A stretch of DNA of 32,000 nt from Mucisphaera calidilacus (GTDB lineage Bacteria > Planctomycetota > Phycisphaerae > Phycisphaerales > Phycisphaeraceae), in NCBI RefSeq assembly GCF_007748075.1, contig NZ_CP036280.1, positions 1,560,001 to 1,592,000 on the forward strand. The letters run 5' to 3'. Shown one piece after another: positions 5,417-29,421 of the stretch. Position 1 is the stretch's first letter. Each line of letters begins with the position of its first letter. The notes beneath the pieces were generated by a model. That model saw only the letters and a program-made list of their open reading frames with translations. It ran no database searches and had not been told where the DNA came from. The translations under genes were made by a program, and so were the position numbers.

Positions 5417-6201
5417 ATGACGGGGCACTTGTCGTGGTCGTCGATGAACTGCGTGAGGATGCGTTCGTGGTCGGGGTTGAGGGTGCTTTTTTCGGTTCGG
5501 AGGTGGATGGCGAAGCTTTTGCGGGGTGATCCGCTGGTGTTGATGCCGCTGCCGTGGAGGGTGTGCCGGTGGTGGAAGCTGACGCCGCCGGGCTTGAGGA
5601 TGGAGGGTACTTCTTCCCAAGCGATGCCCTGGGGGAGCTGGATGCTGTTCTTGAGTTTGTCGAGGTCGTTGGAGAAGAAGTCGCCGCCTGCGAAGAGTCC
5701 GTCGCGGTGTGAGCCGGGGACGAAGGCCATGGGGCCGGCCTGTGGTGTGACGTCGCTGATGGCGACCCATGCGGTGAAGAGTTCGCTGTCGGGTGTCCAT
5801 TCGGGCCAGTACTGAGCGTCCTGGTGCCATCCGACGGCGGGTCCGCCTGCGTTGGCAGGGTCGACGGAGGGTTTGTGGAGGAGCTGGACCCACCAGACCT
5901 GGATCATCTTGGCGCCGGTGACGCGTGCGGCGAGTTCGCCGAGTGCGGGGTGTGCGATGCAGGCGTGGATGTCGGGGTCGGCGAGGTTGGGCATCTCGAT
6001 CTTGCAGAGTTTGGTGTCGTCGTCGCCTGGCTTCCAGGGTGATTCGAAGGGTTCGTTGCCTGAGGCGTATTCGCCTCGGCGCACGGCCTCCATGCCATGT
6101 TCGGCGGCGTGGACGGTGTCGGCCGGGATGACCGGCTGGTCCGCGATGTAGTAGCCCCGCTGAGCGTAGAACTCAGCGACGTTGGTGTCGCTCTTGAGCA
6201 T
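5401..6201 (-). CDS. Phytanoyl-CoA dioxygenase (PhyH)-family Fe(II)/2-oxoglutarate-dependent oxygenase
   Basis: ATG (cat 6199-6201), TGA at 5401. WHQDAQYWP, FVPGSH and HHRHTLHGSGIN motifs fit the PhyH facial triad and Arg region. Last gene of the minus-strand hydrolase operon. Confidence 0.75.
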   Translation of the reverse strand: MLKSDTNVAEFYAQRGYYIADQPVIPADTVHAAEHGMEAVRRGEYASGNEPFESPWKPGDDDTKLCKIEMPNLADPDIHACIAHPALGELAARVTGAKMIQVWWVQLLHKPSVDPANAGGPAVGWHQDAQYWPEWTPDSELFTAWVAISDVTPQAGPMAFVPGSHRDGLFAGGDFFSNDLDKLKNSIQLPQGIAWEEVPSILKPGGVSFHHRHTLHGSGINTSGSPRKSFAIHLRTEKSTLNPDHERILTQFIDDHDKCPVIYDKR

Positions 6202-14535: not shown

Positions 14536-15264
14536 TTACGCGCGACGGGCGAAGGCGAGGCCTGCGAGGCCGAGGAGGGCGACGCTGGCGGGTTCGGGGA
14601 CGGGGAGGACGTCGACTTCCCAGATGAGGGGTGCGACGAAGGCTTCGGAGAGGCCGTCATCGATGCCGGTGAAGGGGTTGACGCCCGCGAAGGGGTCGCG
14701 GTATTGGCCGCCGGTGTTGTCGACGGTGTAGAACTCGAGACGGAGATCGTTGACGCCGGCGGCGAGGGTTGCGGAGGCGTCGTCGAAGATCTCGACGAAG
14801 GTGGAGCGCCAGCCCTGGTCGTTGAGGGTGCCGGGGAGGTCGGACTCAACGTAGGCGAGGAGGCTGTTGTCGGCGTAGATGGCGACGGTCATGAAGACGC
14901 GTCCGTCGGCGCCGTCGTTACCGCTGAGGATGTTGATGCCGCCGATGTCCTGTCCGCCGAGGTCGTAGGAGACGATCTTGGTGGGGAGGCCTGCACCGGG
15001 GAAGTCGTTGAGCAGGCCGTTGAGGCCGGCGCCGGTGGTTCCGTCGGTGAGCTGGATGAGGCGGGCGGGTTCGCCTGGGGTGGCGGGGTGCCAGCCGTTG
15101 TCGGCGCCCTCGACGCCGACCTGACCTGCGATGAGGTCGGTGTTGCTGAGCTGTGCCTCGAAGCCGAACGAGTCGGTGCTGTGTGCGGTGGTGCTGGTGA
15201 CGGCACCGAACGCGGAGCCCGAAGCGAGAGCGACGAGAGCGAGTGACAGGGCGAGATTCTTCAT
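14536..15264 (-). CDS. PEP-CTERM-anchored secreted protein with an uncharacterised conserved domain (paralog of the N-domain of 20497-21675)
   Basis: ATG 15264 preceded by AGGAG. Signal peptide [29 protein letters not shown] tail [21 protein letters not shown]. Shares blocks [48 protein letters not shown] and [10 protein letters not shown] with the other gene. Confidence 0.75.
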
Positions 15265-16492: not shown

Positions 16493-16709
16493 GACGCTTG
16501 TGTGACGATCAGGACGCGGCTCGATCTCAGATACAATACTTTCAAGATACCTGAATGCGCAACCGTGTCAAGCGAAAAAGAGGCTTCAATAACTCAAAAC
16601 AACGGCTTGGATTCGGTCTTATTGTGACTTATAGTGCAGGGAGTACCGGCAAGATCGTTCAGTTGCGCACCTCGGCCACCGTATTCTGAGTTTGCAGGAA
16701 GTATGACTT
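16493..16709. promoter_or_regulatory. Divergent AT-rich control region between the regulator gene and the GxGYxYP/isomerase/amidohydrolase operon
   Basis: 217-nt non-coding gap with much lower GC than its flanks. Contains TGAATGCGCAAC (16552-16563), its partial inverse GTTGCGCA (16662-16669), and an AGATAC direct repeat (16529-16534 and 16545-16550). Confidence 0.5.
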
Positions 16710-19149
<2,440 letters not shown>

Positions 19150-19150
<1 letters not shown>

Positions 19151-20418
19151 TGGCGACTGATCTTGATCTGCACGTTGACGGATTGTGTGTTGTTGACACG
19201 CATGAGCATCTGAATCCGCCGGGGTTGTATCCGGATCAGGAGCATGATCCGCTGCGGTTGTTGTTTGACAACTATTTCGCGCACGATCTGGTGTCGGCGG
19301 GTGCTACGCCGGGGCAGGTTCATGACGAGCTGTTCAATCCGGGATTCGGCGGTGTTGCGGAGCGTTTCGCGGTGGTTGCGCCGTTCTGGGAGCGTGCGCA
19401 GCACACGGGGTATGGGCGTGCGGTGAAGATCATGGCGCGGGATCTGTTCGGCATCGAGCGTGTCGGCGTCGAGACGATGGGGGCATTGGAGGCGGCGGCG
19501 CGGGCGTTGACGTCGGATCCTGACTGGCGGCTGAGGCTGCTGCGCGACCGTGCGAACCTGGACCATGTGCAGTGCGATCGTTTTGACAACGCGGACGAGC
19601 CGGCGGAGCCGGACAAGGGGTTTTTTCGTTCGGATATCTCGTGGGTGTGGAACAGCCGGGGCGAGGTGGACTTTGGTCGGCTGATGGCGCGGACGGGTGT
19701 TGAGGTGACGGGTGCGGCGTCGGCGCGGGAGGCGATCGCGGAGCAGTTTCGTCGTGAGGCGCCGGGCGCGGTGGCGTTGAAGTCGCAGCACGCTTATGCG
19801 CGGACGCTTCTGTGGGCGAACCGGACGGACGCTGAGGTTGAGGCGCTGATCGAGCGTCGGCTGCGGGGCGAGGATCTGGTGGGTGATGATCGTCTGGTGC
19901 TGGGTGACTGGATGTTTGCGCGTGGGATCGAGGGTGCTACGGATCACGGGTTGCCGGTGAAGATTCACACGGGTTACCTGGCGGGGAATGGCGGGTTGTG
20001 GCCGACGCAGATTTCGCCGAGCAACCTTGGGCCTTTGCTGGTGGGATTTCCGGAGGCGCGATTCGTGCTGATGCACGTTGGGTATCCGGAGCCGGGGCAG
20101 GTGGTGCAGTTGGCGAAGCATTACCGCAACACGTGGATCGACATGTGCTGGGCGTGGAGTATCGATCCGGTGACGTCGCGTGGCTTTGTGGCGTCGGCAC
20201 TGGCGGCGGTCCCGGCGAACAAGATCCTGGCGTTTGGGGGGGATTCGCTGTGGGCGACGGCGTCGTACGCCTACTCGGTGCAGGCGCGTCGGGAGTTGGC
20301 TGGCGTGCTGGGGACTCTGGTTGCGGACGGGACGTTTGATGAGGGCGAGGCGATCGGGATAGCGACGCGGTTGCTGCGTGAGAATGCGTTGGACCTGTTT
20401 CCGACGCCTGGGTTGTGA
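19150..20418 (+). CDS. Amidohydrolase-superfamily (Amidohydro_2-like) metal-dependent TIM-barrel hydrolase
   Basis: The ATG overlaps the upstream stop (TGATG 19148-19152). HxH motif VVDTHEHL, later KIHTGY, LMHVGYP and AFGGDS consistent with amidohydrolase metal ligands. Substrate unknown. Confidence 0.65.
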
Positions 20419-20428
20419 GTTGAAGGGG

Positions 20429-20468
20429 AAAAGCAAAAGCGGGCCCACCTCGATTGAGATGGACCCGC
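20429..20468 (-). terminator. Candidate intrinsic terminator for the 20497-21675 gene
   Basis: The minus-strand transcript reads GCGGGTCCA-(12-nt loop)-TGGGCCCGC followed by TTTTGCTTTT. The stem is 5+3 bp with one mismatch and lies 29 nt after the stop. There is no U-tail in the + direction. Confidence 0.45.
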
Positions 20469-20496
20469 TCATTGGAGAAGGGACTGGGGTTGGTGG

Positions 20497-21675
20497 TCAG
20501 GCTCGTCGTGTCATGCCGGCGAGGCCGAGTGCGAGGAGCGCGACAGCTGCGGGCTCGGGGACGCTGTTGGAGTTCTCGAAGTTGGCTGCGAGGATGGAGA
20601 GGTCGAGGAGGTTGACGCCCGCGTCGCCGTTGAAGTCGCCGTCGGCCCATCCACCGGCTGCGTCGAAGTTGGACGCGAGGGAGGAGAGGTCGAGGAGGTT
20701 GACGGATTCGTCGAGGTTGGCGTCGCCGAGGAAGGTTCCGAGGTTAACGGTGACAAATTCGTTGAGGTCGTCGACGTCGACGAGGCCGGAGCCGTCGATA
20801 TCGAGTTTGGGATCGGTGGTGCCGAATCCGGCGGCGATGGTGTCGATGTCGGCTGCGTCGACGACGCCGTCGCCGTTGAGGTCGTTGGGGATGCCGACGC
20901 CGGGCTCGCCGATGACGTCGATTTCCCAGACGAGGGGAGCGACGACGGCGCGGTTGAGTTCGTCATCGATGCCGGTGTAGGGGTTTTCGCCCTCGAAGGG
21001 GTCGCGGTACTGTCCCTGCGTGTTGTCGACGGCGTAGAAGTCGAAGCGGAGGTTGGTGACACCGCTGGCGAGGGGGCCCTGCTCGCTGTCGGTGATCTCG
21101 ACGAAGGTGGACTTCCAGCCGTTGTCGCCTGTCGCGTTGTTGAGTGTTCCGAGGGGGTCGGACTCGAAGTATCCGAGTTGTTCGAAGGAGGCCCCGTCGT
21201 CGGTGGAGTAGAAGATCATGGTGGTCGAGAAGACTCGGCCGTCGGCGTTGTTGTTGTTGCCGGTGAGGATGTTGATCTGGTTGATGATGGAGGGCTCGTC
21301 GAGGTCGAACTGGACGAGTTTGGTGGGGACGCCGGTGGTGGCTTCTTCGCCGCCGGGGTAGTCGTTGAGGAGGCCGTAGAAGGGGTCACTGCCGACGCCG
21401 TTGGTGCCGTCGGTGAATGCCGGGAGTCCGGAGGACCATTCGGATCCGAAGGTTGAGGCGAGGTTGACGGGGTGCCAGCCGTTGTCGCTCCAGGTGGTGC
21501 CGTCGAGTCCTTCGATGTCGGAGAGCTCGGTGCCGATTTTGCCGGCGATGAGGTCGTCGGTGGCGAGTTGGGCGTCGAAGGCGAAGGCGCTGGTGTCGTG
21601 GCTTGTGGTGGCCATGGGGACGGCGAGCGCGGGTGTCGCGGCGAGGCAGCAGGCGAGCAGAGCGTTGCGAAGCAT
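20497..21675 (-). CDS. PEP-CTERM-anchored secreted protein: uncharacterised conserved domain (paralog of 14536-15264) plus dockerin-type repeats
   Basis: Preferred ATG 21675 preceded by AGGAGG (the GTG at 21711 is less likely). Signal peptide MLRNALLACCLAATPALA. Dockerin loops DLNGDGVVDAADID, DIDGSGLVDVDDL, DANLDESVNLLDL and DGDFNGDAGVNLLDL. Tail VPEPAAVALLALGLAGMTRRA. Confidence 0.75.
   Translation of the reverse strand: MLRNALLACCLAATPALAVPMATTSHDTSAFAFDAQLATDDLIAGKIGTELSDIEGLDGTTWSDNGWHPVNLASTFGSEWSSGLPAFTDGTNGVGSDPFYGLLNDYPGGEEATTGVPTKLVQFDLDEPSIINQINILTGNNNNADGRVFSTTMIFYSTDDGASFEQLGYFESDPLGTLNNATGDNGWKSTFVEITDSEQGPLASGVTNLRFDFYAVDNTQGQYRDPFEGENPYTGIDDELNRAVVAPLVWEIDVIGEPGVGIPNDLNGDGVVDAADIDTIAAGFGTTDPKLDIDGSGLVDVDDLNEFVTVNLGTFLGDANLDESVNLLDLSSLASNFDAAGGWADGDFNGDAGVNLLDLSILAANFENSNSVPEPAAVALLALGLAGMTRRA
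20500..20895 (-). other. Dockerin-repeat plus PEP-CTERM C-terminal cassette (copy 2)
   Basis: See copy 1. Matching blocks are GDANLDESVNLLDLSSLASNFDAAGGWADGDFNGDAGVNLLDLSILAANF...VPEP here and GDATLDGVVDLLDLSALAANFYKTGGWADGDFNGFGGVDLNDLSIIASNW...VPEP in copy 1. Confidence 0.7.
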
Positions 21676-22016
21676 CGTGATTCCTCCTGAGCGGTCTGGG
21701 CGTGATCTCACAGAGACTGGAAGGCGTGCTGACGTGGCACGCGCGGGATTTACGAATCAAGCGTAATTCAGTGTAATCCATAAAGTGGGCGTGTCACGCG
21801 AGAAAACCAGAAAATTAACATATCTACCCTTTTTTCAACGTGTTGCATCAATGTGATGCGCGCCATTTACCTGATTTTCGGTAGATGTTTCGCCTGACGG
21901 GTCAGTTGAGGTATGGATGAATGAATGCGCAACTCTGACTCAGATGCGCGATTGATCAGTGGATGCTGCACAGGCTCGGGCGTGGGTCGTGAGATTTTGG
22001 TGTGCCGGACGGAGGC
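21676..22016 (-). promoter_or_regulatory. AT-rich intergenic region: promoter/leader of 20497-21675 and 3' end of the corrinoid operon
   Basis: 341-nt gap. Contains TGAATGCGCAAC (21922-21933), GATGCGCG twice (21855-21862 and 21943-21950), and the palindromes gcatca-atg-tgatgc (21845-21859), gcgtg-t-cacgc (21789-21799) and gcgtgc-N7-gcacgc (21724-21742). Confidence 0.4.
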
Positions 22017-23117
22017 CTACGCTGAGGATGCTTTGACGAGGGTGTTTTCGGGGATCGGCTCGTCGGGGTAGGACTTGATGGTCTCGATCATGCGGCAGTA
22101 GTTCTCGATGCGGACGTAGTCGGGGACGGTGTTGGAGATGCCGGGGATGTAGCCGCCGTGGGTGTTGAGCGTGTCGATTCGGTTGCGGACGGCGGCTTCG
22201 ACCTGATCGGGTGTGCCGCGAGCCATGAGGTCGAGGTCGATGTTGCCGAGGAGACAGAACCGTCCGGGCCAGCCTTTCTGGATTTCGAGGGGGTCCATGG
22301 ACTTGGGTTCGAGGGGCTGGATGCCCTTGACGCCGATGGCGGCTAGGTCGTCGAAGACGTCGTAGAGCTTGCCGTCGGAGTGGTAGATGAGGGGGAGGTT
22401 GCGAGCTTTGGCGCGGTTGATGAGTCGGGCGATGTGGGGGAAGAGGTTCTCGCGGAAGAAGTCGGGTGAGAGCATGAGGCCTTCGGTGTAGGCAATGTCG
22501 TCGGAGTAGAGCACGGCTCCGGCGCGGTCGCCGACGCGTTCGAGGATAGCCTGGAAGGCGTTTTCGATGGCGGCGGCAAGCGAGCCCATGACGTCCTCGA
22601 TCCACTCGGGCTGTTCGATGCTGGCGAAGCAGAAGGCGTCGAAGCCGATCATCTCCCAGGAGAAGGTGAAGATGTCGGCAATGTGGACGAGGAGTTTCGT
22701 GTTGGGGGGCGTTGCCTCGGCCATCTGTTCGATGAAGTCGAGGGTGTCGCTGATGGCGTCGAGTTTGCCTTCGGCCATGTCGTGCCAGCTCCATCGTCTG
22801 GCTTTGTAGGTGTCGTAGTCGGGCATGACGCCTGCGCCGGAGTGGGTGTCGGCGCCGGCGGCGAGTCGCTGCCGGTCCTGATGCTCGTAGAGCTCGGTCA
22901 TGGGTGGGTAGAGTTTGGCCTGGACGTAGTCGTAGCCGCAGAGGCGGAAGACCTCGACCTCGTCGGCGGGCGAGACGCAGGGCCTGCCGAGGATCTCGGA
23001 GCGGTGCGTGATGTCGATGTGGAAGTCGAACTGCGGGGGTCGCGTCCATGCCTTGCGGAGCAGGAGGGTGTCGAGGAAGCGGTTGAAGTCGGGTTCGTGG
23101 TTGATGTCGGGTCGCAT
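22017..23117 (-). CDS. URO-D (uroporphyrinogen decarboxylase)-superfamily protein, MtaA/CmuA-like methyltransferase candidate (not HemE)
   Basis: 366 aa. Family-typical C-terminal half LPLIYHSDGKLYDVFDDLAAIGVKGIQPLEP, LLGNIDLDLMARGTPDQV and GGYIPGISNTVP. Lacks the HemE PxWxMRQAGR N-terminal signature. Last gene of the corrinoid operon. Confidence 0.75.
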   Translation of the reverse strand: MRPDINHEPDFNRFLDTLLLRKAWTRPPQFDFHIDITHRSEILGRPCVSPADEVEVFRLCGYDYVQAKLYPPMTELYEHQDRQRLAAGADTHSGAGVMPDYDTYKARRWSWHDMAEGKLDAISDTLDFIEQMAEATPPNTKLLVHIADIFTFSWEMIGFDAFCFASIEQPEWIEDVMGSLAAAIENAFQAILERVGDRAGAVLYSDDIAYTEGLMLSPDFFRENLFPHIARLINRAKARNLPLIYHSDGKLYDVFDDLAAIGVKGIQPLEPKSMDPLEIQKGWPGRFCLLGNIDLDLMARGTPDQVEAAVRNRIDTLNTHGGYIPGISNTVPDYVRIENYCRMIETIKSYPDEPIPENTLVKASSA

Positions 23118-23130
23118 GGTGTTTCCGGTA

Positions 23131-24066
23131 TCAGGCTGCGTTGGCGCTGAGCAGGTGCTTGTTCTGGAGGAGTAGGGTCTGTACGGCGTCTCGCTGGCTG
23201 GCGGGTCCGATGATCACGAGTTGGGAATCGGGGTTTTCGGTGTTGGCGGGCTTCCATCGGACGCGGTCGGCGGCGATGTCGACGAAGAGGTGCTGGTTGT
23301 CGAGTAAGACAAAGCCCTTGGCGCGGTAGATGTGGTTGCGGAGGGTGTTGAGGAAGGCGTTGAGTTCATCCCGCGAGCGTGCGGGGTTGACGTGGATGAT
23401 CCAGCGTTCGTAGTTGGTGTCGGCGCAGGTGGCGTACTCGCCTTCGACGGAGGTGTGTGTTGTGTCGGGCTTTTGGAACGGGTTGATGTCGGTATTGCCG
23501 AAGCTGGCGCGGCGGATATCGAGGCTGGGGTTGATCTCGTGCAGCAGGGCGTGGGTCTGGTCGATCTGATCGGCGGGGTGCTGATCGATCATGGTGATGA
23601 TGGCGGTGTGGGAGGCGGCGATCTGTGCGCGTGTGTTGGGGAGTGTCTTGAGGAGTGTGTTGAGTTTGTCGGGTGCGACGAGGCAGATGGTGTGGGCGAG
23701 GTTGAAGTGCCGGTCGAGCTGGGTTTCGTGGAGCATGCGTTGCGCGACGGAGGGGTCGGCGATACCGCTTGCTTCGACGATGACGCCTTCGAGGGGGCTT
23801 GAGTTGTGCGTGTGCGCGAGGGTGTTCATGACCTCGCGGAACCGAGTGACGAGGCAGGTGCAGAAGATGGATCCGCCGGGGACGGTGACGGCGTTGGGGG
23901 CGTCGGCGAGGAGTCGGCCGTCGATGTCGTGCTGAGAGAACTCGTTGACGACGTAGGCGAGGCGTCGTTCGGCGTGTTTGCGCGCGATAGCGCGCAGGAA
24001 GGTGGTCTTGCCGCTGCCGAGAAACCCGGTGACGAGCGTGAGCGGGATGGTGCCTTGGTCTGTCAT
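23131..24066 (-). CDS. COG0523 / CobW-family G3E P-loop GTPase (metallochaperone-like)
   Basis: Preferred ATG 24066, 7 nt after the upstream stop. The longer ORF to 24171 would overlap the upstream gene and add a Pro/Ser-rich extension. Walker A LVTGFLGSGKTTFL. The metal-motif region reads GGSIFCTCLV. CobW C-terminal-like domain present. Confidence 0.85.
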   Translation of the reverse strand: MTDQGTIPLTLVTGFLGSGKTTFLRAIARKHAERRLAYVVNEFSQHDIDGRLLADAPNAVTVPGGSIFCTCLVTRFREVMNTLAHTHNSSPLEGVIVEASGIADPSVAQRMLHETQLDRHFNLAHTICLVAPDKLNTLLKTLPNTRAQIAASHTAIITMIDQHPADQIDQTHALLHEINPSLDIRRASFGNTDINPFQKPDTTHTSVEGEYATCADTNYERWIIHVNPARSRDELNAFLNTLRNHIYRAKGFVLLDNQHLFVDIAADRVRWKPANTENPDSQLVIIGPASQRDAVQTLLLQNKHLLSANAA

Positions 24067-24073
24067 TCGGCGT

Positions 24074-25468
24074 TCAGGCGTTGGCGGTCTGTTTCTCGTC
24101 GAGACGTCGTGCGATCCGGTCGGCGAGTGTCTTGGTGTCGGGGATGACGGAGGCGAAGGCGAGTTCGCCATCGATGCAGATGGAGGGGAGTGCGCCGACG
24201 TTGAGTCGGCTCATCATGCCGACGCCCTGGCGTGTGGTGATCTTGTGCTCGCGGATGACGACAGGGGTGTCTTCGGGGAAGCGTGAGCGTGCGTCCGTGG
24301 CGGCGGCGAACATGTACTGGCAGGGAGCGCAGGAGGCGGAGTCGAGGGTGATGACGTCGACGGTGACCTGTGCGGGGTCGTTGTAGTCGGGGAGTTGGAT
24401 GTCGGCGAAGTCGTCGGCGTCCTTGTCGGCGAGGGTTCGTGCGACGTCGCGTTGGTAGGGGTCGTGGACGAGTTCGGCGACGGCCTGGAGGTTCTCGGGC
24501 TTGACGTCGTAGGGTAGGTCGCAGCCGGGAGCGAGGATGAAGCCTGAGTCGCCGGCGGTGTCGATGCAGTGGATGGCGTCGCGTTTTGCGTCGTCGGTGT
24601 CGCCCATGAGGAGGACGACGGTGAGTTTGAGGTTTCCGCCGAAGCTCTTGTTGTTGGGGACGGTGAGTTCGCGGATGGTGTTGAGGTCGATCTGTTCGTC
24701 GATGGAGACGTTGTCGCAGGCGGTGGCTGCCATGACTTCAAGGTTGCGTGTGGCGTCGCCACAGACGAAGAGTGATGAGAGACCGCCCTTCTCGCGGATG
24801 TGGCTGAAGAGGTCGTTGAGTGAGGGTGCGACGAATTGCTCGAAGTGTTCGGGGCTGATCTGGGAGGTCATGGGGTCGACAACGGCGATGATGTCGGCGC
24901 CGTTTTCGAGGTAGCGGGAGGCGACCTGTTTGGCGATGTCGGTGCAGTGTGCCATGGTCTTGAGGACGAGTTCTTCGTCGTCGAACATCTGGAGGAAGAG
25001 GTCGGTCCCCATGAGGTGTGAGGTGAGGGTGAAGGGTCCTGTGAGGAGGCCGTAGAGGGCGAGCTGGTCGCCGAACGTGTGGCGCATGCGTCGTGTGGCC
25101 TCCCAGACGATGGGGAATCGTCCGGCGTCGGTCGAGAAGGCGGGGAGGTCTTCGAGGCTGGCGCCCGGGCCTTCCATAGCGCTCATGGGGTGTGAGGTGA
25201 CGGAGGGCGGGGTCTTGTCGGCCCAGTTGAGCTGGCAGCCGAGGACTTCGGCCTCGAGTTGGAGGTCGAAGGCGATGGGCAGGCCGTCGGGGCGGTAGAG
25301 CTCGACGGCTTTGGTGAGGCCCTTGACGATATTGTCGGCGGACTTGAGGTAGTCGGTAGCGGTCTGGTCGATGAGCTTTCCGCCGTGGACGCCTACGAAG
25401 GGCAGCCATGCCGGTCGTGGTGTGTTTTTGCCTGCGATGGCGTCGAGGATGATCTGTTTACCGGTCAT
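24074..25468 (-). CDS. URO-D/MtaA-superfamily methyltransferase candidate fused to a C-terminal thioredoxin-fold (Thioredoxin_3-like, CxxC) domain
   Basis: 464 aa. N-terminal roughly 360 aa URO-D-like: ILDAIAGKNTPRPAWLPFVG, SLFVCGDATRNLEVM, FILAPGCDLPYDVKPENLQAV. The C-terminal roughly 100 aa, VTVDVITLDSASCAPCQYMF...LPSICIDGELAFASVIPDTKTLADRI, match the small CxxC thioredoxin-like family pattern. Confidence 0.8.
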   Translation of the reverse strand: MTGKQIILDAIAGKNTPRPAWLPFVGVHGGKLIDQTATDYLKSADNIVKGLTKAVELYRPDGLPIAFDLQLEAEVLGCQLNWADKTPPSVTSHPMSAMEGPGASLEDLPAFSTDAGRFPIVWEATRRMRHTFGDQLALYGLLTGPFTLTSHLMGTDLFLQMFDDEELVLKTMAHCTDIAKQVASRYLENGADIIAVVDPMTSQISPEHFEQFVAPSLNDLFSHIREKGGLSSLFVCGDATRNLEVMAATACDNVSIDEQIDLNTIRELTVPNNKSFGGNLKLTVVLLMGDTDDAKRDAIHCIDTAGDSGFILAPGCDLPYDVKPENLQAVAELVHDPYQRDVARTLADKDADDFADIQLPDYNDPAQVTVDVITLDSASCAPCQYMFAAATDARSRFPEDTPVVIREHKITTRQGVGMMSRLNVGALPSICIDGELAFASVIPDTKTLADRIARRLDEKQTANA

Positions 25469-25488
25469 GGTGATTACTCTGCGTGGTG

Positions 25489-26118
25489 TCAGGCGTTGAT
25501 GAGGGTGCGGACGGTGTCGACGGCGGAGGCGGCGTCGGGTGCGAAGCCGTTGGCGCCGACTTCGTCGGCGAAGGCCTGGGTGACGGGTGCGCCGCCGATA
25601 ATGACGCTGACGCCTTCGAGTCTGGCCTCGTTGATGGCGTCGATGGTCTTTTTCATGGCGGGCATGGTGGTGGTGAGGAGTGCGGAGAGGCCGACGACGG
25701 TGGCTCCGGATTCCTTGACGGCTTCGACGAATTTTTCGGGGGACACGTTGGTGCCGAGGTCGATGACCTGGAAGCTGGCTCCCTTGAGCATCATGACGAC
25801 GAGGTTCTTGCCGATGTCGTGGAGGTCGCCCTCGACGGTTCCGACGACGGCGGTGGCGAGTGGCTTGTAGCCGGCCTCGACGAGTTTGGGCTCCAGGATG
25901 GCCATGGCTTCTTTCATGGCGCGTGCGGCGATGAGGACTTCGGGGACAAAGATCTGGTTGGCTTTGAAGCGCTGCCCGACGTCGTCCATGCCCTCGATGA
26001 GTGCTTCGAGGATGGTGTTGGGGGAGGTGCCGGCGGCGAGTTCGGTCTCGGTGGAGGCGGTGGCGAGCTTGCGGTCACCCTTTTTGATGGCTTCGGTGAG
26101 GTCGTTGAGTGCGGACAT
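25489..26118 (-). CDS. Corrinoid (cobalamin)-binding protein, MtaC/MtbC-like (B12-binding_2 cap plus B12-binding Rossmann domain)
   Basis: ATG 26118 preceded by AAGGAG; 209 aa. His-on motif VEGDLHDIGKNLV (DxHxxG), downstream GLSALLTTT (SxL) and VIIGGAP (GG). First gene of the minus-strand operon. Confidence 0.95.
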   Translation of the reverse strand: MSALNDLTEAIKKGDRKLATASTETELAAGTSPNTILEALIEGMDDVGQRFKANQIFVPEVLIAARAMKEAMAILEPKLVEAGYKPLATAVVGTVEGDLHDIGKNLVVMMLKGASFQVIDLGTNVSPEKFVEAVKESGATVVGLSALLTTTMPAMKKTIDAINEARLEGVSVIIGGAPVTQAFADEVGANGFAPDAASAVDTVRTLINA

Positions 26119-26364
26119 CGTTGCTCCTTGGCCTTGTGTGGCGCTTGTGTCAGGGGTCTGTGCGTGGCGTCGATTGTACGCGGATCAAGAGACTCACGCG
26201 TCTGTGGTTCGGTAGTATTGTGTACGAAATTGGCGTTTTCAAGAGGTATTTGACATTTATTCTGATAATTACAGTGTTATACTCTGAGGCAGGTGTATCC
26301 CGCCGGTTGTTTTTCGTTCGTGCTGGTTTGTTCGTTGATCAGGAATGACGCCTTGGATGGCAAG
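26119..26364. promoter_or_regulatory. Divergent control region between the corrinoid-protein operon (-) and DUF1638/RACo (+)
   Basis: 246-nt gap with an AT-rich core at about 26221-26290. TTGACA (26250-26255) and TATACT (26278-26283) are present but 22 nt apart, so no canonical promoter is asserted. Confidence 0.4.
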
Positions 26365-27117
26365 ATGCGACATGAGGTGGCGGCGCCGGGCGGGGTTTGG
26401 GTGATCACGTGCGCGGTTCTGGAGCTTGAGGTCGAGGCGATGCTGCGTGACCGGGCTGACGTCGTGGGTGTGACCCGGCTGCCGCAGGGTCTGCACAACG
26501 AGCCGGATCGTCTTCGCGAAGAGCTGCAACTGCGTATCGATGAGGCGGAGACGTGCGCTGGGTGCGGGGTGATCGTTCTGGTTTATGGGTTGTGCAGTCG
26601 GGGTACGGAGGGTTTGCGGACGCGTCGGTGTCGTCTGGTGATCCCGCGTGCGCACGACTGCATCACGCTGCTGCTGGGGTCGAAGGAGCGTTACGCGGCT
26701 TATGTGTCGGAGCACCCGGGGACGTACTGGTATTCGCCGGGGTGGAACGCGCATCATGTTCCGCCCGGGCCGAAGCGGTATGAGCTTCTGCGTCGGGAGT
26801 ATGTCGAGAAGTATGGCGAGGACAACGCGGACTTTCTGATGGAGATGGAGCAGGGTTGGTTCAAGGAGTACAACCGTGCGACATACGTGCACCTGAGTAT
26901 CGGGGCGACGGACGAGGATCGGGCCGAGACGCGTCGCTGTGCGGACTGGCTTGAATGGACGTATGACGAGGTGGCGGGTGATCCGGGGTTGATGGAGGCG
27001 TTGTTGTCGGGCGCGTGGGATGAGGAGCGTTTTCTGGTGCTGGAGCCTGGCGAGGCGTTTGTGATGACGGCGGACGAGCGTGTGATTGAGCGTGTGAAGG
27101 GGGAGGCTTCGTCGTGA
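26365..27117 (+). CDS. DUF1638-family protein (function unknown, recurrently linked to corrinoid methyltransferase genes)
   Basis: Preferred ATG 26365; the upstream 24 codons from 26293 lie in the AT-rich intergenic region. VLELEVEAM, GLHNEPDRLREELQ, VLVYGLCSRG and IPRAHDCITLLLGSKERY resemble DUF1638 conserved blocks (by eye). The stop overlaps the next start (GTGA). Confidence 0.65.
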   Translation: MRHEVAAPGGVWVITCAVLELEVEAMLRDRADVVGVTRLPQGLHNEPDRLREELQLRIDEAETCAGCGVIVLVYGLCSRGTEGLRTRRCRLVIPRAHDCITLLLGSKERYAAYVSEHPGTYWYSPGWNAHHVPPGPKRYELLRREYVEKYGEDNADFLMEMEQGWFKEYNRATYVHLSIGATDEDRAETRRCADWLEWTYDEVAGDPGLMEALLSGAWDEERFLVLEPGEAFVMTADERVIERVKGEASS

Positions 27118-28694
27118 GTGAGGGGTGTCGTCTTCGGGTTGTGGCGGAGGGGGTGGACGATGTGGTGATCGATGTGGGGCGTGATGCGCTGGGCGAGAGT
27201 GTGGCGGAGATTCTGTACGGAGCGGGTTTGGGGTTGAACACGCGTTGCGGGCGGCGGGGCGTGTGTGACGGGTGTTTCGTCGAGGAGCTTGGCCGCGAGC
27301 GTGTGGAGCGTCGGCGTGCGTGTGCGTGGCGTCTGGAGGCCGGCGAGGCGGTGATTCGGATTCCGCGTCGGAGTCGTGCGTCGCATCGGCCGCAGGTGCT
27401 GGAGCATTTTGATCTTCGGGTGCCTTATGCGCATGACCCGCTGGCGGATGAGGGCGTGGGGATTGCGGTTGATCTGGGAACGACGACGGTTGCGGTGGTG
27501 GTGGTTGATCTTGCGGACGGGCGTGTGCTGGCGCGTCGGAGCCGGTTCAACGGGCAGATTGAGCTGGGTGATGACGTGCTGAGTCGGATCAATCTGTGCG
27601 GTCGTGGCGCGGGGCAGTTGGTGTTGCTACAGAAGGCGGTGGTGGCGGGGACCTTGCGGCCGCTGATTCTTGAGGCCCTGGGAGAAGCCGGGGTAGAGCT
27701 GCGTGATCTGGGCTGCGTGACGGTAGCGGGGAACACGACGATGCTGCACCTGCTGGTGGGTGAGGATCCGACGCCGATGGGTGCGGTGCCTTTTACACCT
27801 GGGTTTGTGGAGCACCGCGTGGTGACGGCGGGGGAACTGGGGTTGGCGTTGCCGGGGTGTGGTGATCTGCCGGTGCACCTGCTGCCGTCGGTGAGTGCGT
27901 ACGTGGGTGCGGATGTGCTGGGGGGCGTGTTGTCGACGGGTCTGGCGTATGAGGCGGGTGCTTCGCTGCTGGTGGACGTGGGGACGAACGGCGAGATGGT
28001 GCTGGTTCATGAGGGGAAGATGACGGCTTGTGCGACGGCGGCGGGCCCGGCGTTTGAGGGTTCGGGGTTGTCGCACGGGATGCGGGCGGCGCGGGGGGCG
28101 ATTGAGCGGGTTGATCTGGAGCGCGAGCCGTTCGGGGTGGCGTGCGGGACGATCGGCGATGCGGAGGCGGAGGGGTTGTGCGGGACGGCTTATCTGGATC
28201 TGCTGGCGCAGGGGCGTGCCGTGGGGTTGTTCAACGAGCGGGGTCGGTTTGCGGATCCGCTGCCGGCGGGTGCCGAGTCGTGGATGGTTGATCACGAGGG
28301 TGTGCGTGGTCTGGCGGTGGCGGAGGGTGTGGTGGTGACGGAGGTGGACGTGGCCTTGTTGCTGCAGGCGAAGGGCGCGATCGCGGCGGGGATTCTGACG
28401 CTGCTGGAGCTTGCGGGCGTGTCGGCGTGTGATGTGGGGCGTGTTTATCTGGCGGGTGGGTTCGGGATGTCGTTACGGGTGGAGCATGCGATCGCGATGG
28501 GTTTGCTGCCCGGATTCAGGGTGGATCAGGTTTCGCTCGCGGGGAACAGCTCGCTGGCCAGTGCGTATCTGGCGTTGGTGGATCGGTCGTCGCTGGAGGA
28601 GTTGGAGCGGTTGCGCGGTGAGGTTGAGAGCATCGAGTTGAATCAGGTGGCGTCGTTTGAGGATCACTACATTGATTGTTTGTCGCTGGGTTAG
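27114..28694 (+). CDS. RACo-type ATP-dependent reductive activator of corrinoid proteins ([2Fe-2S] ferredoxin domain plus ASKHA ATPase domain, DUF4445)
   Basis: GTG 27114 with GGGGGAGG 8 nt upstream, overlapping the DUF1638 stop. Cys cluster CGRRGVCDGC...ACAW. ASKHA motifs GIAVDLGTTTVAV, LLVDVGTNGEMVL, AAGPAFEGSG and YLAGGFG. Confidence 0.9.
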   Translation: MSEGCRLRVVAEGVDDVVIDVGRDALGESVAEILYGAGLGLNTRCGRRGVCDGCFVEELGRERVERRRACAWRLEAGEAVIRIPRRSRASHRPQVLEHFDLRVPYAHDPLADEGVGIAVDLGTTTVAVVVVDLADGRVLARRSRFNGQIELGDDVLSRINLCGRGAGQLVLLQKAVVAGTLRPLILEALGEAGVELRDLGCVTVAGNTTMLHLLVGEDPTPMGAVPFTPGFVEHRVVTAGELGLALPGCGDLPVHLLPSVSAYVGADVLGGVLSTGLAYEAGASLLVDVGTNGEMVLVHEGKMTACATAAGPAFEGSGLSHGMRAARGAIERVDLEREPFGVACGTIGDAEAEGLCGTAYLDLLAQGRAVGLFNERGRFADPLPAGAESWMVDHEGVRGLAVAEGVVVTEVDVALLLQAKGAIAAGILTLLELAGVSACDVGRVYLAGGFGMSLRVEHAIAMGLLPGFRVDQVSLAGNSSLASAYLALVDRSSLEELERLRGEVESIELNQVASFEDHYIDCLSLG

Positions 28695-29356
28695 TGCAGG
28701 CAGCGGCGTGTCAGTGCCGCGAGGCCGAGTGTGAAGATTCCGATGCTGAGGGGTTCGGGGATGATGGTAGTGACGGTGAAGGTGCCGGGTTCGATGGTGG
28801 TGTCGAGGGCTGCGATGCCGTCGAGGGTGAGTGTGAATTCGCCAACGAGCAGGTCGTCCGCGAGGGTGAAGATGGTGGTCTGGTCTTCGAGATTGCCGGC
28901 CTGGATGATGAGCGAGCCGATGTAGACGTCGCGGCGGGCGCCGATGGGTTGCGGGGTTTCGGTGCCGAGGACGCCGAGTGGCTCGAAGGGGTCCTGGAAG
29001 AGGACGGTTCGGAGTTGATCGGGTGTGAGGGTGACGATGGGGCCGAGGGGGTCGTTGAAGTCGAGGTCGTTGGTGTTGAAGGCGGTCATGGTGGCGGGGT
29101 CGGTGTCGGCGGAGGTGGCGTCGACCCTGACGTCGAGGGAGATCAGGCCGTTCTCGGCGATGAGCGTCGAGATGGCGAGGTCGGGGATGTCTTCCTGGAG
29201 AAAGAGGTCGACGATGACGGTTTCGCCGACGAGGACTTCGTAGGCCGGCTCGGCGGCGACGAAGCGGAAGACGCCGGCATGGGCGGTGGTGCTCGCGGAG
29301 GCGAGTGCGAGCGCCGCGAGGATCAGCGTTGAGCAGAGTATGTTGTGGGTACGCAT
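28691..29356 (-). CDS. PEP-CTERM-anchored secreted protein, possibly with a cohesin-like beta-sandwich
   Basis: Preferred ATG 29356 (GGAGA 6 nt upstream). Signal peptide MRTHNILCSTLILAALALASASTTAHA. PEP-CTERM tail IPEPLSIGIFTLGLAALTRRCLH. The cohesin-like pattern (VLVGETVIVDLFL..., GLISLDVRVD..., VYIGSLIIQAGN..., GTFTVT) is judged by eye only. Confidence 0.6.
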   Translation of the reverse strand: MRTHNILCSTLILAALALASASTTAHAGVFRFVAAEPAYEVLVGETVIVDLFLQEDIPDLAISTLIAENGLISLDVRVDATSADTDPATMTAFNTNDLDFNDPLGPIVTLTPDQLRTVLFQDPFEPLGVLGTETPQPIGARRDVYIGSLIIQAGNLEDQTTIFTLADDLLVGEFTLTLDGIAALDTTIEPGTFTVTTIIPEPLSIGIFTLGLAALTRRCLH

Positions 29357-29421
29357 GGGATTCTCCAACTCCTCATCGGCCGGCCCTGAGCGGGGATGGT
29401 GGCCGTGTCGGTCTTGGTCAT

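Follow-up and report, generated by a model that had tools for sequence, protein, structure and literature searches.

A corrinoid methyl-transfer locus in Mucisphaera calidilacus as a candidate oxygen-independent system for demethylating sugars

The 32-kb stretch of the Mucisphaera calidilacus genome analysed here (the window) carries a six-gene corrinoid methyl-transfer set at 22017-28694 (Table 1). An initial annotation, made without database searches, had already assigned these genes to families, and Pfam supports all six, with the URO-D, B12-binding, B12-binding_2, DUF1638, RACo and cobW profiles it had suggested all found, whilst Thioredoxin_3 stays below threshold (E 0.016). The host, taken from its DNA to be PVC-like, is a planctomycete of the Phycisphaerae and an aerobe. 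The four minus-strand genes run in the order corrinoid protein, UROD464, COG0523 GTPase and UROD366, and with gaps of only 20, 7 and 13 nt they look like one operon. Transcribed divergently from them are DUF1638 and RACo, coupled by a GTGA start/stop overlap at 27114-27117 as had been noticed before. A promoter scan of the intergenic region between the two groups returned 2 sites where 1.0 is expected, so that the one sigma-70-like site (minus strand, 26242 to 26214) is weak, and no riboswitch or any other Rfam family was found across the window.

Table 1. Features of the locus and its surroundings, in positions of the window
Feature	Position	Strand	Basis
CUT1-type ABC system	263-4255		
GxGYxYP putative glycosidase	16710-18566	+	Pfam
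Cupin-type lyxose/mannose isomerase	18563-19150	+	Pfam
Amidohydro_2 protein, uronate-isomerase-like fold	19150..20418	+	Pfam; HxH at residues 18-20
UROD366, divergent URO-D/MtaA-fold barrel	22017..23117	-	Pfam URO-D E 3.6e-20, partial, profile positions 116-346
COG0523 (CobW-type) GTPase	23131..24066	-	Pfam cobW E 2.7e-28 + CobW_C
UROD464, MtaA-like URO-D TIM barrel + thioredoxin-like domain	24074..25468	-	Pfam URO-D E 7.8e-58, full length
Corrinoid (cobamide) carrier, B12-binding_2 cap + Rossmann B12-binding	25489..26118	-	Pfam, translation
Divergent intergenic region, corrinoid-protein operon / DUF1638-RACo	26119..26364	.	A+T-richer than flanks
DUF1638 protein, translationally coupled to RACo	26365..27117	+	Pfam E 2.6e-41; GTGA overlap
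RACo/RamA-type ATP-dependent reductive activase of corrinoid proteins	27114..28694	+	Pfam RACo middle + C-terminal (ASKHA)

The surroundings of the set are rich in genes for sugar use, and the glycan-utilisation context previously described holds for its transport, kinase, hydrolase, isomerase and regulator genes. Pfam calls SBP_bac_1/8, two BPD_transp_1 permeases, PfkB, DUF2961 (GH172), GH38, a GH39-like protein, a GntR/Peripla_BP_3 regulator, GxGYxYP, Lyx_isomer and Amidohydro_2. For the genome as a whole the count of glycoside hydrolases is 85 over 3.49 Mb (PMC8882080), a mean of ~0.8 per 32 kb, against three or four within 12 kb here, thus their clustering exceeds chance. The last three of the Pfam calls overlap by 4 and 1 nt and are therefore read as one operon, which converges on the corrinoid module and ends with Amidohydro_2. 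The AF2 model of this last protein (pLDDT 90) matches 4I6V in Foldseek with a TM of 0.83 and the uronate isomerases TM0064, 2Q01, 3IAC and BH0493 with query-normalised TM of 0.70-0.80, and on the strength of that fold it is proposed to be a downstream sugar or sugar-acid isomerase.

The corrinoid protein has the His-on motif GDLHDIG (the DxHxxG reported earlier), along with LSALL (SxL) and IIGGAP (GG), and its best NCBIfam matches are MtgC and pyl_corrinoid, each below its cut-off. When full MetH is searched against the window by tblastn the B12 domain alone matches, at this protein. With MtaB and full MetH as queries tblastn turns up no homolog of the MtaB, pterin-binding or homocysteine-binding kind anywhere in the window, in keeping with the lack of an MtaB-, MttB- or pterin-type partner remarked on in the initial annotation. 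RACo reaches 324 bits against NCBIfam AcsV, the cut-off being 800. It had been described as having both a 2Fe-2S and an ASKHA domain, of which the ASKHA part is borne out by Pfam and the 2Fe-2S part is weaker, as Pfam does not call it (Fer2_4 E 0.22). The protein is 37% identical to an ortholog from Pontiella in which a Fer2 domain is called, and C45, C51, C54 and C70 align with that domain across a deletion of ~13 residues, the N-terminus probably being a shortened Cys4 ferredoxin-like domain. The DUF1638 protein may act as a helper in corrinoid reactivation by analogy with Phaeobacter, where B12-dependent methionine synthesis requires both DUF1638 and a RamA-like protein (PMC5764234), and with Ruegeria, where the two are induced together with MtgC (PMC12478193). 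Aerobes do run corrinoid methyltransferases with RamA and DUF1638 (PMC12478193). That the locus encodes a corrinoid methyl-transfer system can be held with high confidence.

The candidate for the substrate side of this system is UROD366. Its AF2 model (pLDDT 94) is closest in fold to MtaA among PDB structures, with TM 0.67/0.72. Across 40 homologs H246-S-D248, E270 and N329 are invariant, eight other Asp/Asn residues are invariant alongside H246, D248 and E270, and most of the invariant acidic or polar residues are predicted to lie at or beside the ends of barrel strands. In a profile alignment with MtaA, H246, D248 and E270 fall on H240, C242 and E263. At the zinc-ligand positions UROD366 has His-x-Asp and Glu where MtaA has His-x-Cys and Cys. 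Replacement of Cys by a carboxylate is held to mark O- rather than S-methyltransferases in this superfamily (PMC10418091), and UROD366 has a metal-ligand pattern of the oxygen type. The family is small and reaches no curated NCBIfam family. Two of its members, P0375 and P0411, are fused to B12-binding_2 and B12-binding domains whilst retaining the FHSDG and SSNS..YVP motifs, and these fusions indicate that the family works with a corrinoid. UROD366 is therefore probably a corrinoid-dependent MT I, and it is proposed to be the substrate:corrinoid methyltransferase for an O-methyl donor.

The second barrel, UROD464, is closer to known enzymes, with an E of 2.3e-25 to PDB MtaA 4AY7, in an alignment that has Phe at the His of MtaA, and a score of 174.5 against TIGR01463 (cut-off 235.4). 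Its barrel spans residues 1-340 and is followed by a thioredoxin-like domain, sub-threshold in this protein and called in many orthologs, with a CAPC motif that is invariant in them. The residues of its putative metal site, F234-x-C236 / D257-E258 / C316, are invariant in 30 orthologs. Of the thiol-activating site of the MtaA/MetE type they retain Cys, Glu and Cys, whereas the His ligand is invariantly Phe. UROD464 is proposed to be a second methyltransferase, which passes the methyl group from methyl-corrinoid to an acceptor. The COG0523 GTPase, which has the P-loop GFLGSGKTT and a GGSIFCxCL motif (CxC where the canonical form is CxCC), is proposed to be the metallochaperone for UROD464, and COG0523 subfamily 13 is known beside mtaA/mtaB/mtaC/ramM (PMC2770081).

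The six genes, described as one module in the initial annotation, do not form a single conserved unit. UROD464 and COG0523 make up a separate, widespread pair, kept together in 38 of the 42 metagenome loci. Most of its occurrences are outside glycan loci, and UROD366 accompanies it in none of the 42. The pair is the most conserved part of the set and is usually solitary or accompanied by a corrinoid protein only. Conversely, 12 of 17 Planctomycetota loci with UROD366 orthologs lack a corrinoid protein within 10 kb, the other 5 having a true one, as does L004 in addition, and none of the bacterial homologs of 30-40% identity has one nearby. The apparent corrinoid proteins near UROD366 homologs in L027, L031 and L043 were rejected, these being MetH.

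In other genomes it is UROD366 that lies beside genes of sugar catabolism. In four other Phycisphaeraceae genomes the order is xylB-xylA-UROD366-(DUF1638)-RACo-Amidohydro_2-AraC-corrinoid protein-(UROD361 or MtaB), with GH4 and lyxose isomerase adjoining, XylA passing TIGR02630 and the corrinoid protein 61-75% identical to that of M. calidilacus. A Lyx_isomer gene is also found at the edge of L004, and in L002, L004, L008 and L009 the gene between RACo and AraC is an Amidohydro_2 ortholog of 42-44% identity. Homologs of 30-40% identity in Firmicutes, Armatimonadota, Chloroflexota, KSB1 and Spirochaetes have AP_endonuc_2, GFO_IDH_MocA, GH127, GH78, SSF, CUT1 ABC and PfkB genes as neighbours, and xylose-isomerase-like TIM barrels and sugar transporters are also near distant homologs. 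The commonest neighbours are AraC-type regulators, and around close orthologs the neighbours are scattered over many families, 104 for 111 proteins. PVC, Armatimonadota and like genomes are dense in sugar genes, with the distal genes used for comparison sugar-rich too and not a clean background. As to the class of donor sugar, the genes of the window point to a mannose type and the sister loci to xylose and uronate.

The distribution of the UROD464-COG0523 pair fits a general methyl-corrinoid hub, one in which corrinoid protein, UROD464, COG0523, DUF1638 and RACo are the core, UROD366 is a plug-in paralog among several, and the module lies in a glycan island by accident. UROD464 might then serve as the donor enzyme, with methylated sulfur compounds or methanol as the source of methyl, or else as a methylcobamide:thiol methyltransferase that could for example convert homocysteine to methionine, as in the URO-D-clan core-MetE, which transfers methyl from methylcobalamin to homocysteine (PMC7005905). 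The retained Cys, Glu and Cys of UROD464 fit this, as do the proposal of Mlp clusters as S/Se-methyl systems, hub loci with MtaB and up to five URO-D paralogs, and a Pontiella locus where FolD, Fhs and a formate channel join the UROD464-COG0523 core. However, with its invariant Phe UROD464 fails the HxC...C rule of S-methyltransferases, and neither the recurrent linkage of UROD366, corrinoid protein and RACo to xylAB, the uronate-isomerase-like gene and GH4 nor the sugar-locus setting of distant UROD366 homologs is explained. A hub not directed at sugars is considered somewhat unlikely, and a hub as such is compatible with UROD366 as its sugar-specific plug-in.

It is also possible, although unlikely, that UROD366 acts on methoxylated aromatics, such as the aglycones of glycosides, or on small methyl ethers, with the surrounding CAZymes serving to deglycosylate such compounds or reflecting gene density alone. 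All characterised URO-D MT I enzymes with a carboxylate site use aryl methyl ethers or halomethanes (PMC10418091; PMC13222342), a GH78 rhamnosidase adjoins a Eubacteriales homolog as flavonoid glycosides would predict, two members of the family have an N-terminal domain weakly matching the C-glycoside deglycosidase beta subunit, and the AP_endonuc_2 neighbours share the fold of its alpha subunit. Yet the cavity of CdmB is aromatic and metal-free (PMC13222342) whilst the barrel mouth of UROD366 has invariant residues that are overwhelmingly acidic or polar, its profile matches CdmB only marginally and in part (E 0.0036), and its most tightly conserved gene neighbours belong not to aromatic-ring catabolism but are xylA, xylB and the uronate-isomerase-like gene.

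That methanol, released by esterases from methyl-esterified glycans, is the true donor, assimilated or detoxified with UROD366 as an accessory or methanol-type methyltransferase, is very unlikely: MtaB homologs (422 bits to MtaB_Meth) do directly follow the corrinoid protein in L003, L004, L018 (where the contig then ends), L076 and L101, and Zn-assisted activation of methanol is an established way of dealing with a poor leaving group, but the window has neither MtaB by tblastn nor a carbohydrate esterase by Pfam, and in L003, L004 and L018 MtaB occurs alongside UROD366, to which it is unrelated, and this speaks for separate donors. The MtaB genes of the sister loci do allow methanol, for instance from methyl esters, as a co-substrate or alternative link to glycans.

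The methyl-sugar demethylase first suggested for this locus gains from the oxygen-type ligands, the corrinoid fusions and the sugar linkage, and is weakened by MtaB in the sister loci. The best reading is a three-component O-demethylation that depends on corrinoid and most likely draws its methyl group from a methylated sugar or sugar acid that the cell takes up. That the donor is a carbohydrate is put forward tentatively, and the same caution applies to the full scheme, in which UROD366 moves the methyl group of the donor to the corrinoid protein and UROD464 passes it on. Neighbouring hydrolases would release a methylated mono- or oligosaccharide, for whose import the CUT1-type ABC system is one candidate, and the strongly acidic, polar barrel mouth of UROD366 would bind it. 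The His246/Asp248/Glu270 site, probably with Zn2+, may polarise the ether oxygen, much as Zn does with methanol in MtaB, so that Co(I) of the corrinoid protein could attack the methyl carbon to give a methyl-Co(III) protein and a free sugar hydroxyl. The methylated protein would then dock on UROD464, its metal presumably loaded by the COG0523 GTPase, and hand the methyl to an acceptor. Cys236, Glu258 and Cys316 suggest that this may be a thiol, and by analogy the Pontiella locus suggests a tetrahydrofolate-linked oxidation to formate. From the known roles of their families, RACo with ATP would re-reduce Co(II) corrinoid, helped by DUF1638. The demethylated sugar would enter catabolism through the adjacent Amidohydro_2 protein, lyxose isomerase and kinases.

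Candidate donors are 4-O-methyl-glucuronate, O-methyl-xylose, 3-O-methyl-mannose and 6-O-methyl-galactose. We know of no biochemical precedent for corrinoid-dependent cleavage of alkyl (non-aryl) methyl ethers except methanol, and no corrinoid-dependent methyl-sugar demethylase is described in the full-text literature searched, as the initial annotation had supposed. Since the host is aerobic, the term oxygen-independent describes a property of the chemistry and not a need of M. calidilacus. Overall, the module can be regarded as a plausible, though unproven, candidate for removing methyl groups from methylated sugars in an oxygen-independent way.

The Mucisphaera calidilacus module appears to be a variant corrinoid system of an already known type, and whilst the claim made for its substrate is unproven it is directly testable. 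All six domain calls that the initial annotation had made for the module, together with their coordinates, were borne out by Pfam (see table), and the glycan context in which it had been placed, between carbohydrate-active enzyme, sugar transport and sugar catabolic genes, is by Pfam as had been described. The four genes on the minus strand are separated by 20, 7 and 13 nt, and the genes for DUF1638 and RACo share the start/stop overlap GTGA. The corrinoid protein is small, with a cap domain and a Rossmann B12-binding domain as in three-component systems, and its translation has the motifs DLHDIG (DxHxxG), LSALL (SxL) and IIGG (GG). By its Pfam domains RACo is an ATP-dependent reductive activase of the RACo/RamA type, although the 2Fe-2S domain claimed for it is softer than had been thought, as it is inferred from the alignment of four cysteines with an ortholog's Fer2 domain. 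The thioredoxin-like domain attributed to UROD464 is below threshold in the window copy, but is called in its orthologs, where CAPC is invariant. The window was also said to lack any MtaB, MttB or pterin-binding gene, and neither Pfam nor a homology search of the window found one, nor a homocysteine-binding gene.

Genes of the corrinoid module with their window positions and Pfam matches
Gene	Position	Strand	Pfam match
UROD366	22017-23117	-	URO-D, 366 aa
COG0523 GTPase	23131-24066	-	cobW E 2.7e-28 + CobW_C E 4.6e-08
UROD464	24074-25468	-	URO-D, 464 aa
Corrinoid protein	25489-26118	-	B12-binding_2 E 2.7e-20 + B12-binding E 9e-26
DUF1638 protein	26365-27117	+	DUF1638
RACo	27114-28694	+	RACo_C_ter E 4.6e-68 + Raco_middle E 3.2e-43

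UROD366, a divergent URO-D barrel, is the candidate substrate:corrinoid methyltransferase (MT I). Its AlphaFold model has a pLDDT of 94 and the top fold match is MtaA (TM 0.67/0.72). Searched as a single sequence against solved structures in the PDB it gives no match, and the profile of its family matches only MtaA (E 4.2e-5) and, partially and weakly, CdmB (E 0.0036). The resemblance to an MT I is at the level of fold and superfamily only, with no curated family cut-off reached; the NCBIfam scores are 39.2 for MtaA_Meth (cut-off 400) and 42.1 for mtaA_cmuA TIGR01463 (cut-off 235.4), and there is no match to MtbA (cut-off 600). A HemE function was rejected, there being no match to TIGR01464 (cut-off 302.95), and where public annotation calls both URO-D proteins "uroporphyrinogen decarboxylase family" it gives no more than their superfamily.

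In the profile alignment His246, Asp248 and Glu270 of UROD366 fall against His240, Cys242 and Glu263 of MtaA, and the MtaA-type zinc site, His-x-Cys...Glu...Cys (H240, C242, E263 and C319 in MtaA), is not found. The site that is found, H246-S-D248, E270 and S328-N329, is invariant or nearly so in 40 homologs, in which D52, D63, D148, D206, D207, D296, N329 and N339 are also invariant. Most of the invariant residues are at or beside the ends of strands of the barrel in the AlphaFold model, and because invariant Asp, Asn, Glu and His residues cluster at these ends the mouth of the barrel is predicted to be acidic and polar. It has been proposed from a comparison of the superfamily that His-Cys-Cys marks methyltransferases acting on sulfur or selenium, with carboxylates in place of Cys marking O-methyltransferases (PMC10418091). 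The ligand pattern of UROD366 fits that of the aryl O-demethylase MT I enzymes, in which Cys is replaced by a carboxylate or lost, and an Mlp-type function on sulfur or selenium was rejected as there are no Cys ligands. Zinc is present in some URO-D-type MT I enzymes but absent from others, CdmB being an example of the latter (PMC13222342).

When 1.84 billion representatives were searched exhaustively, the UROD366 family came to 95 clusters at E<=1e-30 and 2154 at E<=1e-10. In P0375, P0411 and the truncated P0501 there is a fusion to corrinoid-binding domains in a CmuA-like arrangement, and the two of these three members that are full length keep FHSDG and SSNS..YVP and have complete B12-binding_2 and B12-binding domains with DLHDIG. 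Such fusions remove most of the doubt that the family would be dependent on a corrinoid. Whatever the donor, it stands that the family of UROD366 is small, is sharply conserved and includes fusions to corrinoid domains. In two metagenome members, P0409 and P0461, the N-terminal ~120-185 aa form a domain matching HMG-CoA_red_N, and that of P0461 also matches, just below threshold, the beta subunit of C-glycoside deglycosidase, a possible sign of a connection with keto-glycoside chemistry.

Of 17 Planctomycetota loci with a UROD366 ortholog, five have a true corrinoid protein no more than 10 kb away, as does one metagenome locus, and the remaining orthologs are solitary; corrinoid matches near distant homologs in loci L027, L031 and L043 were dropped, as they are the B12 domain of full-length MetH. 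Four Phycisphaeraceae loci, L002 (the same as L009), L008, L004 and L018, have an arrangement in common that runs xylB, xylA, UROD366, (DUF1638), RACo, Amidohydro_2, AraC, the corrinoid protein and then an H-x-C URO-D or MtaB homolog, L018 ending at a contig edge right after the corrinoid protein and MtaB. The XylA of these loci passes the xylose isomerase equivalog cut-off (663.5 vs 533.25), the kinase is nearest to xylulokinase, and a GH4 gene adjoins the arrangement, with a cellulase/dockerin protein and a lyxose isomerase also found in L004. Their Amidohydro_2 protein is the ortholog, at 42-44% identity, of that at 19150-20418 in the window, which is the last gene of an overlapping operon, GxGYxYP-LyxIso-Amidohydro_2, that is convergent with the module. 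The nearest structure to the model of the window protein (pLDDT 90) is that of an uncharacterised planctomycete protein, 4I6V (TM 0.83), followed by the uronate isomerases of Thermotoga (TM0064), Caulobacter (2Q01), Salmonella (3IAC) and Bacillus halodurans (BH0493) with query-normalised TM of 0.70-0.80, and its profile matches BH0493 marginally (E 0.016). The modelled fold thus matches that of the uronate isomerases, the activity being only predicted.

By Pfam the 111 neighbouring proteins of the 17 close orthologs are diffuse, with AraC found five times, URO-D four times and then pairs, so that by themselves they show no conserved glycan locus. Homologs of 30-40% identity occur in Firmicutes, Armatimonadota, Chloroflexota, KSB1 and Spirochaetes, and amongst their 105 immediate neighbours are seven xylose-isomerase-like TIM barrels, four Gfo/Idh/MocA oxidoreductases, four sodium:solute symporters, three GH127, three ABC permeases and one GH78, with CUT1 binding proteins, permeases and PfkB kinases found farther away. 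These counts are only suggestive because there is no clean background; the set of distal genes was rejected as such since genes for sugar transport and kinases abound in it too, these being large sugar loci that offer no valid negative control.

The second URO-D protein, UROD464, matches MtaA in the PDB (4AY7) with E 2.3e-25, and its NCBIfam scores are 144.6 for MtaA_Meth (cut-off 400), 142.8 for MtbA (600) and 174.5 for mtaA_cmuA TIGR01463 (235.4); a HemE function was rejected with a score of 74.5 for TIGR01464 vs a cut-off of 302.95. The His-x-Cys...Glu...Cys site of MtaA is not found in UROD464 either. At the zinc positions it has Phe234-V-Cys236, Asp257-Glu258 and Cys316, which are invariant in 30 orthologs, and with Phe234 at the position of the His this ligand is therefore lost, the Cys, Glu and Cys being retained. 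It has ~4000 relatives at E<=1e-10, the best 120 of them all at least 57% identical, and these relatives include Pontiella agarivorans, Tichowtungia aerotolerans and other Kiritimatiellota. Of 42 metagenome or genome loci of at least 8 kb each, 38 have a COG0523 gene following UROD464, 16 a corrinoid protein, six RACo, four DUF1638 and three MtaB, and UROD366 is found in none of the 42. UROD464 is neighboured most often by AraC regulators and corrinoid proteins, and in Tichowtungia the UROD464-COG0523 pair is alone.

The COG0523 protein of the window has the motif FCTCL, and the GGSIFCxCL conserved in the partners of UROD464 (L065-L146) is a CxC, the third Cys of the canonical metal-binding motif CxCC being absent. 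In NCBIfam this partner falls below all of the equivalog cut-offs (CobW, ZigA, YeiR-like). The presence of COG0523 genes beside mtaA, mtaB, mtaC and ramM was noted in 2009, with MtaA and MtaB described as zinc enzymes (PMC2770081). With this precedent and such a constant partnership, the simplest reading is that the COG0523 protein is a dedicated metal chaperone of UROD464. It stands, whatever the donor, that UROD464-COG0523 is a widespread and previously undescribed unit that is separate from the UROD366 half. In Pontiella agarivorans, an anaerobic agar degrader, the locus L066 (1354-12319) has AraC, FolD, a formate/nitrite transporter, formate-THF ligase, the corrinoid protein, RACo, DUF1638, UROD464 and COG0523. 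This looks like a methyl-to-formate operon, and the gene order ties the core of corrinoid protein, RACo, DUF1638, UROD464 and COG0523 to the oxidation of C1 units to formate.

In the methyltransferase islands of acetogens variable MT I enzymes, each specific to its substrate, feed one corrinoid protein from which a conserved second enzyme removes the methyl group. On this pattern UROD366 would be the MT I for an oxygen-bound methyl group, feeding the corrinoid protein, and UROD464 would unload the resulting methyl-Co(III) with the COG0523 protein as its putative chaperone. RACo and DUF1638 would be the repair system of the corrinoid protein, a role suggested by the genetics of Phaeobacter and the proteomics of Ruegeria, both of which are aerobes. 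A thiol acceptor is suggested by the retained Cys-Glu-Cys of UROD464 and by the precedent of core-MetE from Dehalococcoides, a barrel of the URO-D/MetE clan that passes the methyl group of methylcobalamin to homocysteine (PMC7005905), and a route through tetrahydrofolate-linked oxidation is suggested by the Pontiella locus. Whilst core-MetE is a possible model for UROD464, it has the MetE family fold, whereas UROD464 is MtaA-like, lacks the His of the site and has a thioredoxin-like domain. The metal site of core-MetE is a full His-Cys-Glu-Cys. No link of UROD464 to homocysteine was found in this analysis.

The likeliest donor for UROD366 is a sugar or sugar acid that is methylated, as the predicted pocket of the protein is polar and acidic, its tightest conserved partners are of xylose catabolism and a uronate-isomerase-like protein, and its distant homologs are found in glycoside and sugar loci. 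MtaB must displace hydroxide from methanol with the assistance of zinc, and by analogy a sugar alkoxide should be no worse a leaving group. It is therefore proposed, tentatively and with well short of even confidence, that the UROD366 family are the first corrinoid methyltransferases that cleave alkyl (carbohydrate) methyl ethers, such as those of 4-O-methyl-glucuronate, O-methyl-xylose or O-methyl-mannose, independently of oxygen. The family would be spread through the Phycisphaerae and more distantly the Firmicutes, Armatimonadota and Chloroflexota, with the methyl group fed through an undescribed MtaA-like/thioredoxin fusion that has its own COG0523 chaperone.

A more doubtful explanation is that the module is a general methyl hub, dealing with methylated sulfur compounds, methanol or methionine synthesis, and that its position amongst glycan genes is incidental, although a sugar-specific UROD366 could to some extent be accommodated. 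Locus L003 is a hub locus, with a corrinoid protein, MtaB, UROD385, UROD366, UROD464, a 361-aa URO-D-like protein, UROD396, COG0523 and UROD365, and divergent AraC, DUF1638 and RACo; L001 is a smaller version of it, and both unite the UROD366 and UROD464 halves with more methyltransferases. The URO-D paralogs of the sister loci (named by length) split into the same two ligand classes as in the published scheme (PMC10418091), UROD362, UROD365 and UROD385 being of H/D-x-D...E...D-H types and UROD361 and UROD396 of H-x-C types. The module is also like the type 1 mlp clusters in having several MtaA-like proteins, a corrinoid protein and an activase but no tetrahydrofolate methyltransferase; these clusters, described in a preprint by Kountz and Balskus, have a RACE activase and their function is unproven (PMC10418091). 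However, Mlp proteins are almost invariably His-Cys-Cys, and the clusters are tied to sulfur/selenium genes in obligate anaerobes, mostly Firmicutes (PMC10418091), whereas neither URO-D protein of the module is His-Cys-Cys, COG0523 and DUF1638 are additional to it, and the bacteria are of the PVC group and include an aerobe. Against the published description of a type 1 mlp cluster, with Mlp2 and Mlp3 of the His-Cys-Cys type, membership was rejected on the missing site and the aerobic host. The split methionine synthase/glycine betaine demethylase of marine Roseobacters (MtgB/C/A/D) is similar in that one corrinoid protein serves several methyltransferases in an aerobe, with a RamA/RACo-like protein and DUF1638, but its MttB-family donor enzyme and its pterin- and homocysteine-binding acceptor modules have no counterpart in the window.

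It is unlikely that UROD366 is instead an aryl or other non-sugar O-demethylase, with the neighbouring carbohydrate-active enzymes serving to deglycosylate methoxylated glycosides. The aryl methyl ether O-demethylases Odm/Vdm of Acetobacterium dehalogenans, Mtv of Moorella thermoacetica and Mto of Methermicoccus shengliensis, and Cdm for chloromethane, share with the module an MT I of the URO-D fold (here the candidate UROD366), a small corrinoid protein and an ATP-dependent activase of the RACo type; the place of their methyl-corrinoid:acceptor methyltransferase (MT II) would be taken by UROD464, and they too have carboxylates rather than Cys at the metal-ligand positions of the MT I. However, their MT II is pterin-binding and methylates tetrahydrofolate, whereas here there is an MtaA-like barrel with a thioredoxin-like domain that is paired with COG0523. 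Unlike the aryl enzymes UROD366 has no match to a curated family and its mouth is predicted to be polar and acidic, and the partners of the module are sugar isomerases, kinases and hydrolases in an aerobic planctomycete.

MtaA of the methanol:coenzyme M methyltransferase MtaABC (Methanosarcina, 4AY7) is the best match in sequence and fold for both URO-D proteins, COG0523 genes are known neighbours of mtaA, mtaB, mtaC and ramM, and sister loci have MtaB homologs. These lie directly after the corrinoid protein in L003 (7429-8808), L004 (16206-17603), L018 (~12079), L076 (~4789) and L101 (~6749), and score 422 bits on the model of methanogen MtaB, for which the cut-off is 720. Their occurrence in loci of planctomycetes and other PVC-type bacteria suggests that these bacteria use methanol. 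The window itself has no MtaB, and with Phe-x-Cys...Cys in UROD464 and His-x-Asp...Ser/Asn in UROD366 neither protein has the His-x-Cys...Cys of MtaA or reaches the NCBIfam cut-offs. Coenzyme M is not expected in Planctomycetota. That methanol released from methyl esters is the real donor, as the sister-locus MtaB homologs might suggest, is quite improbable for a window without MtaB. The module would work like the aryl O-demethylases and MtaABC, yet it belongs with neither the MtaA/MtbA families, HemE nor the type 1 mlp clusters.

For sugar methyl ethers the role proposed resembles that of the P450 6-O-methyl-D-galactose demethylase of marine Bacteroidota, which with its ferredoxin and reductase removes a blocking methyl ether within a polysaccharide-utilisation locus (PMC6292453). 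The P450 belongs to an unrelated family, is oxidative, needs O2 and releases formaldehyde, and its activity has been shown by experiment, whereas the role of the module is predicted from its genes. A PhyH-family Fe(II)/2-oxoglutarate oxygenase recurs by UROD366 orthologs and in hub loci (window 5401-6201, minus strand; L011 8146-8550; L013 4591-5025; L068 ~3786 and 16344), and may offer an O2-dependent route for these methyl groups, or else be unconnected with them.

The strand asymmetry of the window (1-32000) is extreme, with 12844 G vs 7268 C, a GC skew of +0.28 and an AT skew of -0.21, and it follows the same DNA strand whatever the orientation of the genes. Skews of this size far exceed those known from most bacteria. 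At third codon positions the GC skew is +0.53 for plus-strand and -0.67 for minus-strand genes, and R, V, E and C are commoner in proteins encoded on the plus strand, with N, Q, I, T, K and D commoner on the minus. Long open reading frames at 272-1867, 16659-18554, 19003-20472 and 21940-23049, all on the minus strand, were rejected as genes; they are antisense to or out of frame with real genes, are at most 631 aa, are rich in Arg, Pro and His, have no family matches and arise as artefacts of a G+C content that is both high and skewed. No Rfam family, including the cobalamin riboswitch, was found in the window, and a scan of it for promoters and terminators gave counts at the level of chance, the one strong hairpin worth noting being at 20437-20470. 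This has a G+C-rich stem of 15 bp, lies between the convergent Amidohydro_2 and PEP-CTERM genes and is likely a bidirectional terminator. Four proteins encoded on the minus strand look secreted (29422-31920, 20497-21711, 14536-15264 and 28691-29368); Pfam calls PEP-CTERM anchors in 20497-21711 and 14536-15264, and in 28691-29368, where Pfam calls nothing, a PEP-CTERM-like C-terminus is seen by eye only. That at 29422-31920 (832 aa) has the run GGGGGGGGGGGFGGGGGFGGGG near its N-terminus and a type I dockerin domain, which is unusual in a planctomycete. In the first ABC permease (1903-3399, plus strand, 498 aa) BPD_transp_1 spans only residues 328-487, so either it has a long N-terminal extension or its start codon is called too early.

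The two URO-D proteins and the Amidohydro_2 protein of the window are 100% identical to NCBI proteins of Mucisphaera calidilacus. This species of the Phycisphaerae is mesophilic and aerobic, and its genes for glycoside hydrolases number 85 (PMC8882080). Methyl ethers shield sugars against degradation, and methylated sugars resist gut bacteria and build up in surface sea water (PMC6292453). In the full-text literature searched no corrinoid-dependent sugar demethylase was found, and the only sugar demethylase found there was the O2-dependent P450, which is specific for 6-O-methyl-galactose (PMC6292453). The question on which the module bears is how methylated sugars are handled without oxygen, or without that P450. 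If the proposal is true, alkyl methyl ethers would be a new class of substrate for B12-dependent methyl transfer, the process could be followed in sediments, guts and digesters by a marker gene, an oxygen-free biocatalyst would be on offer for the demethylation of carbohydrates, and in PVC bacteria the turnover of glycans would be joined to C1 metabolism and to the demand for B12 and zinc.
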